From a virus: a stretch of DNA of 36,915 bases. The notes beneath the pieces were generated by a model, which searched no databases, was not told where the DNA came from, and saw only the letters and a list, made by a program, of their open reading frames with translations. The stretch lies in the UHGV virus genome UHGV-0071814; one strand, written 5' to 3'. Of this stretch, positions 1-36,915 are shown piece after piece. The first letter of the stretch is position 1, and each line of letters starts with the position of its first letter. A program made the position numbers and the translations under genes.

Positions 1-491
1 TTTACATTTAAGAAAAGAGCATTGTTTTCATGCTGAGTTATAGTTACAGCCCCGGTAAATGGCTGCCTTACCCCAATTAATGCATCACCTTTTGAATCAT
101 CATTAATGTATGCTCCTGATTGAGATAACTGCTCTTTGAAGTCTGGGCCAAACTGATCTGGATCGTATTTTAATACATTTGGAAAATAAAACTGCTGAGT
201 GCCATAAGCATCGTAAACAGCCATAGAATGGCCTTGCACGGTTACGAATTTGGCAATCTGTCCGTTATATACCGGATATCCAGCAGCGTTAATGATTATT
301 GGTTGCGAAACAGGAATGTGAGAACCGTCTTCGTTCTCTACATAAACCTGAATCTGGTTTTCAGGATTTACCGGGTCAGTGTCAATTTTACCGATATAAA
401 TTTTGCCATTGGCTACGGCTTTAAAAGAACGCGCCATAGTGAAGAGTTGCGAAGGCATACTCACTACAACATTGGCTGTAATGTCTGTCAT
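1..491 (-). CDS. Tailspike protein, N-terminal head-binding domain (partial; gene continues past window start)
   Basis: Minus-strand translation from ATG at 491-489 reads [43 protein letters not shown]..., matching the conserved P22/Sf6/HK620 tailspike N-terminus as I recall it; not in the ORF track because there is no stop in the window. Confidence 0.85.
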
Positions 492-559
492 TTAATTTGC
501 TCCAGATACAAGGAATCGCCGCAGCATTGCCACAGTGATGCATTATTAATCAAACAAAG

Positions 560-574
560 AGACCACTGTGGTCT
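560..574. promoter_or_regulatory. 15-bp perfect palindrome AGACCAC-T-GTGGTCT in the mnt/tailspike intergenic region; candidate Mnt operator
   Basis: Inverted repeat read directly; lies between the divergent mnt and tailspike starts. Confidence 0.45.
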
Positions 575-637
575 TATTGAGGATGCAACCAGCAGATAAT
601 AAGATGCCGATCCACTCACAAAAGCGAGGCATCAAGA

Positions 638-889
638 ATGGGAAGAGATGACCCGCAATTTAATCTGCGGCTACCTTACGAATTAAAGGAAAAACTAAAA
701 CAGCGAGCCAAATCCAATGGCCGCTCTCTTAATTCAGAATTAGTTCAGATAGTGACTGATGCCGTATCAAAGCCATCCAAAATTTCAGGCTATCGAGACG
801 ATGCGGAACGCATCGCTGATGAGCAGTCTGAACTTGTTAAGAAGATGGTGTTTGATACGCTGAAGGATTTGTACAAAAAACCCACCTGA
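638..889 (+). CDS. mnt: Mnt repressor (ribbon-helix-helix, Arc/Mnt family)
   Basis: 83 aa, MGRDDPQFNLRLPYELKEKLKQRAKSNGRSLNSELVQIV...DEQSELVKKMVFDTLKDLYKKPT; same length and near-identical C-terminus to P22 Mnt as recalled. Confidence 0.85.
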   Translation: MGRDDPQFNLRLPYELKEKLKQRAKSNGRSLNSELVQIVTDAVSKPSKISGYRDDAERIADEQSELVKKMVFDTLKDLYKKPT

Positions 890-2157: not shown

Positions 2158-4155
2158 CTATTCTGACAACGAATCAGACTTAGCACCCTGCGTCAGTGCA
2201 TTAATCGCTTTTTGCGCTTGCTGCATGGCTTTCTCAAACGCTGTCGATCCGCGTGGTGTGTTTGCCATTCGGAGCATTGCATTTCTGAATGGTTCGCTCT
2301 CATAGGCGCGAGTAAGAAGTCCGTAGCTTACCGCTGCGCCAGTTGTCGCCGGGTTCATTGCTGTCCCATACCCGATAATGAACGGGATGGTTTGCTGCCC
2401 TGTTGGTGTTGTTACTGCCGCTTTTGCAGCCTGCTGCGTGGATTGCAGGTAGTTTTTCAATCCTTTCAGATAAGCAGCGTCCTGCCCCTTAAATGTGATG
2501 CCAGTCTGGTTTTGCAGGATGTTAAGCTGTCGAAGGAACTGATCAGGGGAACCACCTGATTTCTCCATCGCCTTTCCAATGATGCCATTGCGCATTTGCG
2601 CCCTGCCAACACGACCAACTGAGTTATACAGCGTCTTAATTTCCGATTTGTTCTTGCTGAATAGCATGTTGTTGACAACTTCCGGCGTCAGGTCGCCTTT
2701 CATGAGAACATTCTTCAGCATGGTATTCTTTAGTTTCGCCGCTTCGTCAGCGTAGACGGCATTGGCCTGCTGATATTTACGGAGAGTATCGTTGCCAAGA
2801 TTCTGACCAATGGCACCATTGATATCGTCGGTCATTGCCTTGTAAACGCGCTGAATGGCAGCATCGGAACGGTTTGGTAACACTGGTCGCTCACCCTTCA
2901 CATCCATTCTGAACTGGCTGCGCAGATCGCTTAATTGCTTCAAATCCAGATTTACCGGACCATCAGGACCAGCATTGCGAACAAGCTCATCACGATAGGA
3001 CTGAAGTTTTGAAATAGTCTCGTTATCAGCAACCTTACCAAGCTTCTGCAGGTTAGATATTTCTGTATCAATCTGCTGAATTGCTCTTGCAGGCTGAATG
3101 TTTATTCCCGCCATAGCATTCTGAACCTGCTCCAGTCGATTACCGGCGGCACGACGAATTCCTGATGTTTTCGCTTTAAGGCTGTCAATAACAACCGCTG
3201 GATCATACTCACCGAATTTATCAGCAAATCTCTGAACCAACTGGCTTCTCGCTTCCTGTTGCGTTGCTCTCATTCCGCTTGTGCCAGCCAGGGGGATATT
3301 TTCTGCTGTCGTTTGCGCCATTTTTCCGACGCGGGAAGTAGGCTGTAACAGGTCTGTGGTGTGCAGAGGAACTCCTTCACGCTCTGCAAATCTGATAGCC
3401 TGCTGCGCTTCTGGCGCAATAGCACCACGAACGCCACGATAAGCAGCACCTAATCCACGTCCGGCAGCGTTAATAGCACCGCCAGCCAGAACGCCAACGC
3501 CTAAATCGGTGGCGAGTGCTTCCGCATCATCTTTCGCACTATTTGCAGCAAGTGATCCAACTGCGTTTTCTGCTAGAAGGCGAGTTGCCCCCTGAGCAAT
3601 TCGACCAGCAAGTGTTGGTGCCTGTGCTGCCGCTCTCTCAACGCCAGCAGGAGTGAGGTAAGGCAATGCTTCAGCAAATACCCTTCCCTCTGTCGTTTGT
3701 GGAGTGAGCGCGCCTTGCTGAAGGCCAAAGTCCTGCTCTAACCCCTGCGTTGTTACTCGTGGCGCTGGTTGATATGTACCATCGCCAATGCCGAGTTTAC
3801 CGCCAGCCCATGCCGCCGCGCTTGTTACAGCATCGGCAACTGATGCAGGTATGTTTGCCACGTTCACGCCAGCCTGCACCAGTCCGCGACCAGTTTCTTT
3901 CACGGCTTCACCAAGATCCGACATAAATCCACTTTGCTGTGGTTGTTGCTGTGATACTGGTTGTTGTGTCTCCACTGGCTGCACAGATGGCAATGGATAG
4001 GCAGCATAGAAAGCTTGCTTAGCCTGCTCTGCATTTTCTCCGGCTTGCGGGGCAACGACTTCATTGAAGTATTGCTCCTGAGCCTGCGCTTTTTGTTCTG
4101 GTGCTAACGCCTGATACTGTGGAGAGGCGATAACATCTTTCCATGCTTTAGCCAT
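2158..4155 (-). CDS. DNA ejection/injection protein (P22 gp16-like)
   Basis: 665-aa Ala/Gly/Gln-rich protein at the end of the gp7-gp20-gp16 block after the tail needle. Confidence 0.7.
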   Translation of the reverse strand: MAKAWKDVIASPQYQALAPEQKAQAQEQYFNEVVAPQAGENAEQAKQAFYAAYPLPSVQPVETQQPVSQQQPQQSGFMSDLGEAVKETGRGLVQAGVNVANIPASVADAVTSAAAWAGGKLGIGDGTYQPAPRVTTQGLEQDFGLQQGALTPQTTEGRVFAEALPYLTPAGVERAAAQAPTLAGRIAQGATRLLAENAVGSLAANSAKDDAEALATDLGVGVLAGGAINAAGRGLGAAYRGVRGAIAPEAQQAIRFAEREGVPLHTTDLLQPTSRVGKMAQTTAENIPLAGTSGMRATQQEARSQLVQRFADKFGEYDPAVVIDSLKAKTSGIRRAAGNRLEQVQNAMAGINIQPARAIQQIDTEISNLQKLGKVADNETISKLQSYRDELVRNAGPDGPVNLDLKQLSDLRSQFRMDVKGERPVLPNRSDAAIQRVYKAMTDDINGAIGQNLGNDTLRKYQQANAVYADEAAKLKNTMLKNVLMKGDLTPEVVNNMLFSKNKSEIKTLYNSVGRVGRAQMRNGIIGKAMEKSGGSPDQFLRQLNILQNQTGITFKGQDAAYLKGLKNYLQSTQQAAKAAVTTPTGQQTIPFIIGYGTAMNPATTGAAVSYGLLTRAYESEPFRNAMLRMANTPRGSTAFEKAMQQAQKAINALTQGAKSDSLSE

Positions 4156-19037: not shown

Positions 19038-19113
19038 TGGTGCTGGTTAACGGACTTGAACCGCTACCCATTCGCTTACAAGGCGACTGCTCTACCATTG
19101 GAGCTAAACCAGC
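19038..19113 (-). tRNA. tRNA, probably Thr (anticodon UGU)
   Basis: Manual fold: 7-bp acceptor stem, D arm GCTC/GAGC, anticodon loop CUUGUAA, T arm with GGTTCAAGTCC, 3' CCA. Confidence 0.6.
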
Positions 19114-19118
19114 ATATT

Positions 19119-19193
19119 TGGCGGGACAGCGTGGACTCGAACCACGATAAGAAGGTTAACAGCCTTCCGTAATGACCTTTATACGACTGACCC
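19119..19193 (-). tRNA. tRNA, probably Asn (anticodon GUU); one T-T mismatch in acceptor stem
   Basis: Manual fold: anticodon stem GAAGG/CCTTC, loop CUGUUAA, T arm GGTTCGAGTCC, 3' CCA. Confidence 0.55.
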
Positions 19194-19386: not shown

Positions 19387-19878
19387 CTATCCCATACTGG
19401 AGAATTCACCATGATATTTTATCCTGGCATTTTCCATTGCCTTTCTCGCCTCCTCGATATCGTCAAAACACCCTACATGAATCCTTTTACCATTGACCCT
19501 AATTCTTCCAACCCACTTGTTTGCAGCAGAATTAAAAGTCACCCCCTTCACACCAGATGAATTGTTTTTCCTCATCTTGCTGTTCCATGAGTTTTGAGTG
19601 TTAGTAACAACACGAAGATTGGCTATCCGGTTATCAGATCTATCACCATTAATATGGTCAATCACATCGGTTGGCCAATCATTGTAAACCATCAGCCATG
19701 CAATTCTATGGACATATAGCCGCATTCCATAAAGTTTTACCTGCAGATATCCATTTGTTTCATAGCCAACAACAGCGCCATAGATAAATCTAGAGGACCG
19801 AGGTGGATTCTTCCATGTAAGAATTCCAGTATCTGGATTGTAATTAAAAAGTCTCAATGCATCTTCACGTTTTAACAT
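19387..19878 (-). CDS. HNH homing endonuclease with C-terminal AP2-like domain
   Basis: 163 aa; ...VHRIAWLMVYNDWPTDVIDHINGDRSDNRIANLRVV...SGVKGVTFNSAANKWVGRI... Confidence 0.7.
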   Translation of the reverse strand: MLKREDALRLFNYNPDTGILTWKNPPRSSRFIYGAVVGYETNGYLQVKLYGMRLYVHRIAWLMVYNDWPTDVIDHINGDRSDNRIANLRVVTNTQNSWNSKMRKNNSSGVKGVTFNSAANKWVGRIRVNGKRIHVGCFDDIEEARKAMENARIKYHGEFSSMG

Positions 19879-21842: not shown

Positions 21843-22129
21843 GGCTTAATCTTCCCCTCCTTCAGCAGTATCGCCTGCGTCCTGATCACGCCTTCGAGGT
21901 GGTAAAGTCTGGCGTCTTTGTTGTCGAGATTATAGGTGCGTCGGTCGATTTCATCGTGACACGCGCTACAAGCCCATGCGCCGATCAGGTCGTCAGGCTT
22001 CATTCCCGTTCCGCAAATTCCAGCCATCCGGTAATGTGCCAGAACTGTAGTTTCAGGATTGCCATTGCATACGCCGTAAATACGTACCTGGCATTCTCTG
22101 CCGCGTGCTTCTTTGCGTAGATTAGCCAT
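21839..22129 (-). CDS. Cys-rich phage protein (NinX/DUF1364-like)
   Basis: 96 aa with CQV...C...C...CSAC spacing; family assignment from memory. Confidence 0.45.
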   Translation of the reverse strand: MANLRKEARGRECQVRIYGVCNGNPETTVLAHYRMAGICGTGMKPDDLIGAWACSACHDEIDRRTYNLDNKDARLYHLEGVIRTQAILLKEGKIKP

Positions 22130-22851
22130 TAAGCAGCCTCCCCTGTTACTTTCAGCATTCCGTTATCGAGCAGCTTTCTGGTCAGCCACTGTTGACCACG
22201 CCCGGTGATTTTTGTGGTGAACGATATCTGTATTCCGTGATTTGTGTTGACCGCTGTTTCTTTCACTGTGAAATAGCCGCGCTCCATATATTCCTGCATT
22301 GGCACATTGCGCCGGGAACCTGAAGCAATAAGGATTTTGTGATCGCGCATCCACGCAAACAGTTTGTTTGGACCAATTCCAACAACCTTTGCAAAGTTTC
22401 CAATCAAAATTCCACTGGCCTCGCCAACGCGATCGGCAAACTCAACTTTAGGTGCGGCAATTGCGAGCTGGTTTTCCAGTTGCATTTTCTGCTCAGCAAG
22501 ATCAGCAGCAAGGCGCAACGCTTCTGGTAGCGTTTTTGGGATATTAACCGCAGCTTCTTCAAGCTCTCGCCAACGGTCAACAAGGCGAGCCGTGAATTCC
22601 GGCGACAACTGGGCAACGACAATAATGCTGTCGCGCTTACCTTGTTCGCCTTCGAAGACGTAAGCCTCGACACTACGGCGCAGTCCTAAGTTATTGATTT
22701 TTTCGAAAACCTGCAATGCAGGAAGTTGAATAACTCCAGATTTAGCCAGGCGCTCTATTGATATTTTTACATTATCTGGACGACTTCCCACCAACTCAGC
22801 GATTTCAATGCTTGTCATTTTGATGGCATTGCCATTTATTAACTCATTCAT
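22129..22851 (-). CDS. Rha-family regulator/antirepressor (Rha N-terminal domain + KilA-C/ANT C-terminal domain)
   Basis: 240 aa; domain assignment from memory of family patterns. Confidence 0.6.
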   Translation of the reverse strand: MNELINGNAIKMTSIEIAELVGSRPDNVKISIERLAKSGVIQLPALQVFEKINNLGLRRSVEAYVFEGEQGKRDSIIVVAQLSPEFTARLVDRWRELEEAAVNIPKTLPEALRLAADLAEQKMQLENQLAIAAPKVEFADRVGEASGILIGNFAKVVGIGPNKLFAWMRDHKILIASGSRRNVPMQEYMERGYFTVKETAVNTNHGIQISFTTKITGRGQQWLTRKLLDNGMLKVTGEAA

Positions 22852-35390: not shown

Positions 35391-35810
35391 ATGAGGCCTG
35401 TACATTTCTCAAGATATCCAGACCTACCGCAATCATGTCAATCCAATAAATGGAGATTCCAGGTGGAAGAAGAAATCTTCACTCGTGAAGAAGCTGCGTC
35501 GTATCTGAAGGTAGACAAAGGCACTATCACACAGTGGATACGAAGTGGACGACTTCAGGCCGCAAAGATAAATCCAGATAAACCTAAAAGTCCATATCGC
35601 ATTTGCAAGTCAGACTGCATTGTGGCGCTTAAGTCTGTGAGACACAATAGCGCGGTGAATGCGGTTGATGTGCAGGAGGTTAAAGCATGTCAATCAAACT
35701 ACGCGGTGGCACGTGGCACTGCGATTTCGTCGCGCCAGATGGATCAAGAGTTAGACGCTCTCTTGAAACATCGGACAAAAGGCAAGCGCAAGAACTTCAC
35801 GATCGTCTAA
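35391..35810 (+). CDS. xis: Excisionase-like DNA-binding protein; start uncertain (ATG 35391 or GTG 35461); overlaps int by about 124 bp
   Basis: HTH-like segment FTREEAASYLKVDKGTITQWIRSGRLQAAKI; immediately upstream of int. Confidence 0.55.
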   Translation: MRPVHFSRYPDLPQSCQSNKWRFQVEEEIFTREEAASYLKVDKGTITQWIRSGRLQAAKINPDKPKSPYRICKSDCIVALKSVRHNSAVNAVDVQEVKACQSNYAVARGTAISSRQMDQELDALLKHRTKGKRKNFTIV

Positions 35811-36847
35811 AAGCAGAAGCGTGGAGAGTAAAAAATCTCGGGGAATCACCGAAAAAGCTATTCAAGGAAGCCTGCATACGGTGGCTGCGTGAGAAATCGG
35901 ATAAGAAGTCCATTGATGATGACAAGAGCATTATATCGTTCTGGATGTTGCACTTCAGAGAAACCATTCTCTCAGACATAACAACAGAAAAAATAATGGA
36001 GGCGGTAGACGGGATGGAAAACCGCCGCCATCGCCTGAACTGGGAAATGAGCCGGGACAGGTGTTTGCGGCTTGGCAAGCCAGTGCCGGGGGATAAACCA
36101 ACGTTGGAAAGCAAAGGAACGAAGACGCGGCATCTGGCAATACTTCGCGCTATTCTCAATATGGCTGTTGAATGGGGATGGCTTGACAGGGCGCCCAAAA
36201 TATCAACACCACGCGTTAAGAATGGACGAATCAGATGGCTTACAGAGGAGGAATCGAAGCGCCTGTTTGCAGAAATTGCTCCTCATTTCTTCCCTGTGGT
36301 CATGTTTGCAATCACGACAGGCCTTCGCCGTTCCAACGTTACAGACCTTGAGTGGTCACAGGTCGATCTGGATAAGAAAATGGCATGGATGCACCCTGAT
36401 GAAACAAAAGCTGGCAATGCGATCGGAGTTCCTCTTAACGAAACCGCATGCCAGATATTAAGAAAACAGCAGGGTCTCCATAAGAGATGGGTGTTTGTCC
36501 ACACCAAACCTGCCTACCGAAGCGACGGAACAAAAACAGCAGCGGTAAGGAAGATGAGAACCGACAGCAACAAGGCATGGAAGGGAGCGTTAAAGCGGGC
36601 AGGCATTAGCAACTTCCGCTTCCATGACCTGAGGCATACCTGGGCAAGCTGGCTGATTCAGTCCGGTGTCTCTCTTCTTGCACTTAAAGAGATGGGAGGA
36701 TGGGAAACTCTCGAAATGGTTCAAAGATACGCCCACCTTTCAGCCGGGCATCTCACCGAGCACGCGAGCAAAATCGATGCGATTATAAGTCGCAATGACA
36801 CAAATACGGCACAAGAGGAGAACGTAGTTTACTTAAATGTGAGATAA
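35687..36847 (+). CDS. int: Tyrosine-type site-specific integrase
   Basis: 386 aa; catalytic motifs ...FRFHDLRHTWAS... and ...VQRYAHL...; AGGAGG RBS; adjacent to tRNA. Confidence 0.9.
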   Translation: MSIKLRGGTWHCDFVAPDGSRVRRSLETSDKRQAQELHDRLKAEAWRVKNLGESPKKLFKEACIRWLREKSDKKSIDDDKSIISFWMLHFRETILSDITTEKIMEAVDGMENRRHRLNWEMSRDRCLRLGKPVPGDKPTLESKGTKTRHLAILRAILNMAVEWGWLDRAPKISTPRVKNGRIRWLTEEESKRLFAEIAPHFFPVVMFAITTGLRRSNVTDLEWSQVDLDKKMAWMHPDETKAGNAIGVPLNETACQILRKQQGLHKRWVFVHTKPAYRSDGTKTAAVRKMRTDSNKAWKGALKRAGISNFRFHDLRHTWASWLIQSGVSLLALKEMGGWETLEMVQRYAHLSAGHLTEHASKIDAIISRNDTNTAQEENVVYLNVR

Positions 36848-36861
36848 CTTATTGATTTTAA

Positions 36862-36915
36862 TGGTGCCGATAATAGGAGTCGAACCTACGACCTTCGCAT
36901 TACGAATGCGCTGCT
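36862..36915 (-). tRNA. thrW: tRNA-Thr (anticodon CGU), 3' portion only; prophage attachment site
   Basis: Minus strand ...AGCGCATTCGTAATGCGAAGGTCGTAGGTTCGACTCCTATTATCGGCACCA; anticodon loop and T arm through CCA match E. coli thrW as recalled; truncated by window end. Confidence 0.8.

Follow-up and report, generated by a model that had tools for sequence, protein, structure and literature searches.

Repressors of the Mnt family have one symmetric operator of ~17 bp adjoining their own gene. In phage P22, mnt is part of the immI region, which also contains its operator Omnt, arc, ant, sar and the divergent, overlapping promoters Pant and Pmnt (PMC2724298), and mnt lies ~1.4 kb from the start of the tailspike gene. 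In related phages this region is variable: Villafane et al. (2008; PMC2629481) called it the 'ant moron', described ST64T, ST104 and Para1 as possessing there only mnt and a gene whose function is unknown, and proposed that the region may influence the frequency with which late transcription reaches the tailspike gene. The mnt-only arrangement has also been reported for phage L (bioRxiv 10.1101/2020.10.05.325894) and for Gally, a prophage of E. coli LF82 (Misson et al. 2023; PMC9928086). The arrangement is thus known from publications and from annotated phage records, and a preliminary description of the present locus as a rewired immI circuit overstated its novelty. What our sequence comparisons add is a candidate Mnt operator in the mnt-only phages, an apparent loss of Pant with retention of Pmnt, and an apparent pairing between Mnt residue 6 and position 5 of the operator half-site; in a limited literature search, we did not find any of the three stated.

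The DNA analyzed here (36,915 nt, UHGV-0071814; hereafter, the window) covers the greater part of an E. coli prophage of the P22-like (Lederbergvirus) type, with the 5′ end of the tailspike gene at one end and an integrase gene beside a tRNA fragment at the other. The tailspike gene, a homolog of P22 gene 9, is encoded on the minus strand, and its 5′ part with the head-binding domain (positions 1-491; Pfam Head_binding, 6.3e-68) belongs to an ORF that continues past the left window end. Its ATG is the complement of 489-491 and is preceded by a Shine-Dalgarno sequence, GGAG (500-503, minus strand), inside a leader (CATTTAATTTGCTCCAGATNCAAGGAAT) common to the window, P22, ST160 and HK620. On the plus strand, positions 638-889 encode an 83-aa ribbon-helix-helix repressor with 76% identity to P22 Mnt, in agreement with the preliminary naming of this gene as mnt, and a Shine-Dalgarno GAGG (626-629, plus strand) is found 8 nt 5′ of its ATG. 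The two genes are separated by only 146 nt without any arc-type ORF, compared with the ~1.4 kb in P22. Within this gap lies the perfect palindrome AGACCAC-T-GTGGTCT (560-574; 7+1+7), correctly placed by the preliminary description between mnt and the tailspike start, 63 nt from the mnt ATG and 69 nt from that of the tailspike gene. A hairpin with T-runs on both strands, AACCCACCT-GA-AGGTGGGTT (879-898), was detected by terminator scans of both strands and is predicted to be a bidirectional terminator that ends mnt and faces leftward transcription; homologous hairpins are annotated as terminators in HK620, L and epsilon34, and P22, too, has a terminator hairpin after an mnt gene that diverges from the tailspike side.

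As expected for an mnt-only ant moron, the interval that separates the tailspike gene from the last injection gene contains mnt as its sole immI gene, accompanied by small genes of unknown function, a layout shared with ST160, L, 720R6 and Gally. The order of injection gene, small genes, mnt and tailspike gene is likewise that of the Salmonella phages L, ST64T, ST104, SE1 and ST160, and the promoter layout and mnt leader of the Salmonella mnt-only phages are as in the window, although the window derives from an E. coli host, its tailspike-side spacer is 13 bp longer, the C-terminal part of Mnt is more divergent in L and ST64T, and the neighboring small genes differ. Gally is closer: its Mnt is 100% identical to that of the window, its DNA is ~96% identical across positions 151-897, and the primer published for its mnt deletion matches positions 598-640 (PMC9928086), whereas the remainder of Gally is mosaic relative to the window and mnt has different right-hand neighbors. 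vB_EcoP-720R6 agrees with the window at every one of the 100 nt upstream of mnt. The interval from gene 16 to gene 9 of HK620 resembles the window in its flanking hkcC, an orf59a/HkcD-like ORF and the tailspike leader, but has lost mnt and the operator, with only the mnt and ant terminators remaining.

The statement that the locus has no ant held up for P22-type genes. In tblastn searches of the window with P22 Arc and Ant, the sole match was that of Arc to mnt itself, and Ant gave no match below E = 0.07. Nor do the missing genes appear to lie outside the window, a circumstance that the preliminary description had named as fatal to its reading: the complete Gally phage, the closest complete relative, encodes no arc and no P22-type ant anywhere, including the stretch beyond the tailspike gene. 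For sar, an Rfam search of the window at gathering thresholds matched tRNAs only, and the target of sar, ant, is itself missing. The nin region of the window contains a KilAC/Rha ORF with an 'ANT' domain (22129-22851, minus strand) but no operator copy nearby; we rejected this ORF as a cis target of Mnt, because a search of the window allowing up to three mismatches returned a single operator, located elsewhere. PADLOC and NCBIfam scans of mnt and three neighboring genes gave no informative match.

By homology, which in the case of P22 Mnt spans the entire protein, the gene can be assigned as a true mnt. Both the N-terminal ribbon-helix-helix DNA-binding domain (Pfam Arc, 2.8e-22, residues 3-50) and the C-terminal tetramerization helix (Pfam Repressor_Mnt, 2.2e-18, residues 53-80) are present, the latter being predicted to join two dimers into a tetramer, and the protein matched the solved Mnt structures 1MNT (2.8e-34, residues 3-77) and 1QEY (27 of 31 residues identical at 3e-12). 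The β-strand of P22 Mnt is said, from the work of Knight and Sauer, to face the DNA with Arg2, His6, Asn8 and Arg10. The corresponding DNA-reading strand in the window, RDDPQFNLR, retains Arg2, Asn8 and Arg10 and has Gln6 in place of His6. Since this residue change goes together with a changed operator base (see below), Gln6 is more readily taken as a variant of specificity than as a loss. Two mnt-only loci, those of the window and of Salmonella ST160, gave a dN/dS of 0.095 at a dS of 0.51 when their mnt alleles were compared, and mnt is hence under purifying selection.

Taken alone, the palindrome upstream of mnt is only mildly unusual: the window contains 11 perfect palindromes with arms of at least 7 nt and a spacer of 0-3 nt, and 2.7% of shuffles of the 146-nt intergenic region hold one. 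The real support for its candidacy as the operator is comparative. In P22, the Mnt operator and the Pmnt hexamers upstream of mnt read AGGTCCAC-C-GTGGACC-TA-TTGAGA-17-TATCAT, and the window equivalent is AGACCAC-T-GTGGTCT-TA-TTGAGG-17-TAAGAT; the CCAC-N-GTGG center and the distance from the dyad center to the −35 hexamer are identical in the two. The comparison with the P22 operator that the preliminary description had called for therefore gave a match in position, core and −35 spacing. The dyad ends 2 bp upstream of the Pmnt −35 hexamer and, as in P22, is centered ~45 bp upstream of where mnt transcription is predicted to start. Given the shared center and equal distance to the −35 hexamer, the palindrome can be regarded as the positional homolog of Omnt, and it is, as judged by sequence, the putative cognate Mnt operator of a distinct specificity class (GTGGTC with Gln6, versus GTGGAC with His6 in P22), its conserved core being GACCAC-N-GTGGTC (561-573). 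The sequence CCACNGTGG occurs once in the window, and the pattern search with up to three mismatches found no second operator there beyond 560-574, so the earlier claim that this is the only candidate stands.

The terminator scan also listed the palindrome on the minus strand, as a stem of 6 pairs with a 3-nt loop followed by CTTTGTTTGA, and the element might accordingly be read not as a protein site but as a structure in RNA, either a hairpin or a weak intrinsic terminator, that precedes the tailspike gene. We rejected this reading as extremely unlikely. The minus-strand fold is no better than that of shuffled sequences (z = −1.15), the T-rich tail is missing from the ST160/L version of the palindrome, and the arms are conserved in sequence without compensatory changes, such variants as are seen breaking the pairing. 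Moreover, the same dyad is found at a transcription start in complete mnt/arc/antirepressor modules.

To identify the promoter beside the putative operator, we scored candidates with a simple two-hexamer weight matrix of our own, for which the background per 171 nt on both strands has a median of 6.4 and a 90th percentile of 8.9. The P22 promoters Pant (minus strand) and Pmnt (plus strand) score 16.1 and 13.7, respectively; in the window, TTGAGG-17-TAAGAT on the plus strand (577-605) scores 11.1 and the best minus-strand candidate 5.2. This predicted Pmnt (−35 hexamer TTGAGG at 577-582, a 17-bp spacer and −10 hexamer TAAGAT at 600-605, with a predicted start near 612) aligns hexamer for hexamer with P22 Pmnt and is conserved in ST160/L as TTGTGG-17-TATGAT. 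Pant of P22 consists of TTGACA-17-TATATT on the minus strand with the operator at its start site. At the aligned positions of the window (582-610, minus strand), TCGGCA (610-605) and, after 17 bp, TGCATC (587-582) match the consensus at 6 of 12 positions and are devoid of −11A and −7T, and the intervening spacer, which in P22 contains the Arc operator, is unrelated in sequence. Pmnt thus appears to be retained and Pant to be lost, and of the elements of a complete P22-type immI region, arc, ant, the Arc operator and a strong Pant with the operator at its start are missing from the window, and sar appears to be missing as well. An extended scan of both strands over positions 480-2200 provided no convincing candidate on the minus strand to which the tailspike transcripts of a lysogen could be ascribed.

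A protein-based scan of viral contigs produced 80 loci; together with annotated phage loci and the window itself, this gave 68 loci of the window type (protein start MGRDDPQ), every one of which lacks arc and ant. GACCAC-N-GTGGTC is intact in 62 of the 68, which represent 35 distinct upstream sequences, with single arm mutations in the other six. The central base may be T, C, A or G, and left-arm position 7 varies freely, which fits the P22 half-site GTGGACC, whose position 7 is nearly neutral (effect <3-fold; PMC2726951). Thus, a cognate-looking dyad at the homologous place beside mnt is conserved across loci. Promoter hexamers, mnt leader and ribosome-binding site are conserved as well, the Shine-Dalgarno GAGG showing no variation across the 35 distinct sequences. 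In most loci the tailspike start is 135-147 bp from mnt; about ten carry an AT-rich insert between the two genes, and one an IS1. While the distance from operator to mnt is constant, the tailspike-facing side has 11- and 13-bp indels, and the operator-tailspike segment, which changes in length, is the least conserved part of the intergenic region. The operator hence travels with mnt and not with the tailspike gene. The full junction is present in 112 of 5426 complete E. coli genomes (~2%). A separate scan of viral contigs for the exact operator returned at least 120 matches; among the matches listed, 47 were beside mnt and one was in an end-truncated locus, and the 72 others were set aside, as they lie in unrelated contigs of widely varying G+C content and look like chance or coding matches. 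A genome contig collection yielded no match with the protein query, nor with a pattern combining operator and arc.

The preliminary description had left open whether Mnt regulates its own gene or a promoter reading into the tailspike gene. Because Pmnt is retained, Pant is decayed and the distance between operator and tailspike gene varies, control of the mnt promoter is favored on sequence grounds: autoregulation fits the anatomy, which is that of Omnt and Pmnt in P22, and the tailspike promoter does not.

The conservation data also bear on the view that mnt and its palindrome are functionless leftovers of a deleted immI region, a possibility raised in the phage L paper (bioRxiv 10.1101/2020.10.05.325894). 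HK620, in which the region has decayed to fragments, exemplifies such an outcome, and a few loci are visibly damaged, namely the six with arm mutations and one (L069) with a stop codon in mnt. Against this stand the low dN/dS between two mnt-only lineages, the preservation of both arms, promoter hexamers and ribosome-binding site while the neighboring spacer and the central base drift, and the occurrence of mnt-only loci in at least three Mnt specificity classes. A functionless remnant therefore seems unlikely, and we give this view very little credence.

Expression data from the Gally lysogen (PMC9928086) provide a further test of what the operator might control. In the published table (log2(fpkm+5), rounded means of two replicates, with ranges over five conditions), mnt rises from ~3.7 in LB stationary phase to ~9.0 after 1 h in macrophages, and the tailspike gene from ~3.9 in LB stationary phase to ~7.8 after 6 h in macrophages. 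Between LB stationary phase and macrophages, GALLYPH_14 goes from ~5.5 to 11.0 and GALLYPH_17 from ~4.1 to 8.5, while late gene 12 stays at background (3.6-4.1) in all conditions. The mRNA of mnt is up 40-fold in macrophages, along with neighbors on both strands including the tailspike gene (PMC9928086). This joint rise points to an outside signal and to transcription into the tailspike gene that is independent of the late operon. A ∆mnt lysogen of Gally was viable and survived in macrophages as the wild type did, the one assay reported (PMC9928086). That mnt is dispensable for maintaining the lysogen is expected, as ant is absent.

Could the operator nevertheless serve a leftward promoter into the tailspike gene, a surviving equivalent of Pant through which Mnt would set tailspike expression? 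In P22 and in six complete Gln6 modules (described below) the operator does sit at +1 of a leftward promoter, and since tailspike mRNA of the Gally lysogen climbs from background while the upstream gene 12 remains flat, some transcription must start downstream of gene 12. We nonetheless consider this improbable. Apart from the decay of the Pant hexamers to 6/12 without −11A and the poor conservation and changing length of the segment between operator and tailspike gene, none of the minus-strand candidates within 480-2200 exceeds typical background. In addition, mnt and tailspike mRNA rise jointly from background in LB, where a promoter repressed by Mnt should be open; were a tailspike promoter simply repressed by Mnt, the opposite would be expected. 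The tailspike transcripts of the lysogen could instead come from read-through from the neighboring gene past the 879-898 hairpin, or from a promoter that our scan cannot see.

Mnt bound 69 bp upstream of the tailspike ATG, together with rightward transcription from Pmnt, might also hinder leftward polymerases that arrive from the late operon or from the neighboring gene, and so tune the amount of transcription entering the tailspike gene. The operator does lie in the path of all leftward transcription, and the ratio of tailspike mRNA to that of the upstream GALLYPH_14, as computed from the published Gally values, shifts ~13-fold between conditions. Antiterminated late transcription generally passes such obstacles, however, and in Gally higher mnt mRNA accompanies higher rather than lower tailspike mRNA. 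Thus, even though the P22 ant region is thought to affect the arrival of late polymerases at the tailspike gene, with Mnt and Arc as possible participants (Villafane et al.; PMC2629481), a roadblock of this kind is in our estimation also improbable.

The assignment of the operator is further supported by its covariation with the protein. An exact-dyad scan showed the dyad to occur also beside mnt-like genes accompanied by arc and an antirepressor gene, and a specific pattern retrieved six such contigs. They encode Mnt-like proteins with three different C-terminal domains, every one starting MARDDPQFNLRM, and in all six AAGACCAC-G-GTGGTCT is located at +1 of a TTGACA-17-CAT(T/C)AT promoter driving arc; in five of the six, an antirepressor ORF belonging to either of two types was detected downstream. 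These complete modules with the GACCAC operator are found in metagenomic contigs related to Salmonella ES18-like phages, one being ~82% identical to ES18/SPN3UB-like siphoviruses. Erwinia phage Midgardsormr38 and Salmonella phage SPN3UB, considered as complete-module relatives, were discarded, having other repressors and other dyads. The Gln6 reading strand of the window, MGRDDPQFNLRLPYELKEK, recurs in the Salmonella mnt-only phages, and L (whose Gln6 strand and operator are as in ST160) and ST160 have the operator TAAGACCAC-G-GTGGTCTTA, i.e., that of the window except for the central base, which is T in the window. Conversely, GGTCCAC-N-GTGGACC was found beside each examined His6 Mnt with an adjacent operator (P22, epsilon34 and two E. 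coli prophages with diverged Mnt C-termini), and the complete E. coli immI modules that we examined are of the P22 His6 type. The conserved half-sites thus differ at a single position, being GTGGAC where residue 6 is His and GTGGTC where it is Gln.

At this position 5, each of the three Gln6 operator families encountered has T, as against A with His6. The two further Gln6 families are represented by Emek, with the half-site GTACTA at +1 of the arc promoter, and by Sf101 and VSe13, with NNGGTA adjoining the −35 hexamer. The Emek half-site leads us to reject the notion that residue 6 alone sets the whole site; other Mnt residues matter, too. For comparison with work on P22 Mnt from the Stormo laboratory, we take the residue varied there to be residue 6, and positions 16 and 17 of the 21-bp operator to be half-site positions 5 and 6. 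In that study, a single residue change altered which site was preferred, chiefly at two neighboring positions (PMC1184061). The covariation speaks for our assignment of the operator but does not amount to a full recognition code.

As a whole, the locus is probably best explained as an mnt-only form of the P22 immI region, which would have kept the Mnt repressor, its single operator and Pmnt, and would have lost arc, ant, sar, the Arc operator and a strong Pant. A Mnt tetramer at the operator would then act on its own promoter, where a neutral to positive effect would be likelier than classical autorepression, given that P22 Mnt, bound with the same geometry, exerts no repression on Pmnt. According to Vershon et al. 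(1987), the stimulation of Pmnt by P22 Mnt is reportedly indirect only, resulting from the shutoff of Pant as a competitor. Without Pant, such indirect stimulation would vanish and the conservation of the operator would need another cause, which counts against this explanation. The tailspike gene would be expressed mainly by antiterminated read-through of the late operon and not from a Mnt-controlled σ70 promoter. The mnt-only explanation does not account for the outside signal seen in Gally, nor for the tailspike transcription that is independent of the late operon. Nevertheless, purifying selection is strong, acting on the protein as well as on the two arms of the operator, and suggests a module in use.

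The most plausible role to be added would be repression in trans of the antirepressor operons of incoming phages with the same operator type, attractive in that antirepressor operons with exactly this operator exist. Mnt would act as an 'anti-antirepressor', a proposal that we make tentatively and regard as rather unlikely, and that is compatible with activation of its own promoter and with immunity groups defined by residue 6 and position 5. If true, a Gln6 Mnt would silence incoming arc-ant operons bearing GACCAC-N-GTGGTC, thereby protecting the resident C2 repressor and preventing forced induction, and Gln6/T5 and His6/A5 would represent separate immI 'immunity groups' among P22-like and ES18-like phages. 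Should Mnt at −45 activate its own promoter, this would produce the switch-like, 40-fold rise of Gally mnt in macrophages. Since the GACCAC modules are known from ES18-like metagenomic contigs and those examined from E. coli are of the His6 type, trans-immunity can be proposed only tentatively for the E. coli host.

The locus reveals no new kind of system. Its interest lies in Mnt being a textbook model for β-sheet DNA recognition and quantitative binding specificity: the locus belongs to a naturally occurring series whose members differ jointly at residue 6 and at one operator base, and with which the recognition rules established in the laboratory could be checked against evolution. It also sharpens the question, posed by the phage L and epsilon34 papers, of why many P22-like phages keep mnt without ant, as operator conservation, promoter retention and strong purifying selection all speak for a gene in use.

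The predicted mnt promoter Pmnt is overlapped by an inverted repeat, GATGCC/GGCATC (window 603-608 and 628-633), which spans the promoter's -10 element and the ribosome-binding site of mnt. Its two arms are preserved in all classes of loci that keep mnt without arc and ant (mnt-only), VSe13 included, and the 18-19 nt that separate GATGCC from GGCATC differ between these classes. On the other side of the Mnt operator, the tailspike leader repeats part of the operator core as CCACAGTGA (530-538). P22 carries two copies of the related sequence GGCTACGGTGAATTTT between ant and gene 9 (L004, 1950-1966 and 2060-2076), and HK620, a phage with the same flanking genes that has lost mnt and the operator, carries one copy of this type.

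Sf101 (L212, 1365-1452) and VSe13 (L213, 1351-1485) form a third mnt-only class adjoining the tailspike gene, with EAQFHLRL as the Mnt reading strand and a dyad, ATACC-N5-GGTA, that abuts the ATTG of the -35 element at the same promoter distance as in the window. A different arrangement is found in L070-L073 (about 2700-3250), where a P22-type mnt encoding His6 comes immediately downstream of another ribbon-helix-helix gene (MSDRKYKNPQVNLRLP...). This other gene is oriented divergently to a distant arc-like gene and an ant. Since no CCAC-N-GTGG occurs within 1.3 kb, the His6 Mnt appears to be set apart from any cognate operator. The tailspike start itself also varies: in about ten related loci (L023, about 2181-2605, and likewise L034, L051-L055, L060, L064 and L069), an AT-rich insert of ~280 bp interrupts the usual start (ATGACAGATATT) after four codons. 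The ORF for the head-binding domain 3′ of the insert carries an in-frame N-terminal extension of 31 aa, MNRRLFFKT(L/I)ASLS...SNR, whose sequence resembles a twin-arginine export signal, an odd N-terminus for a virion protein such as the tailspike.

The sole antirepressor-family protein in the window is encoded in the nin region by a 240-aa ORF (22129-22851, minus strand) with a KilAC 'ANT' domain (1.2e-32) as well as a weak N-terminal match to Rha; its homologue in Gally, a prophage of E. coli LF82, is annotated as Roi/antirepressor. The segments 19038-19193 and 19387-19878 (minus strand), between the Q-like antiterminator gene and the lysis genes, hold tRNA-Thr(TGT) and tRNA-Asn(GTT) next to an ORF containing HNH endonuclease and AP2 domains. 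At the far end (35687-36915), the gene for a 386-aa integrase precedes a tRNA gene that the window boundary truncates, leaving its 3′ part; this is probably the attachment site, and ARAGORN made no call for the fragment because the tRNA gene is incomplete.

To the right of mnt, three small genes (974-2067) take the place of P22 sieA/orf59a. One has its own promoter (TTGACT-17-AATATT, 924-952) and encodes 64 aa (phrog_3202), another encodes a 121-aa hkcC-like protein (phrog_1365), and the product of the third, 161 aa long, is a predicted lipoprotein (phrog_6067). PADLOC returned no matches for the three. In published Gally expression data (PMC9928086), the lipoprotein homologue was strongly induced in macrophages, as was the Gally gene at the corresponding position.
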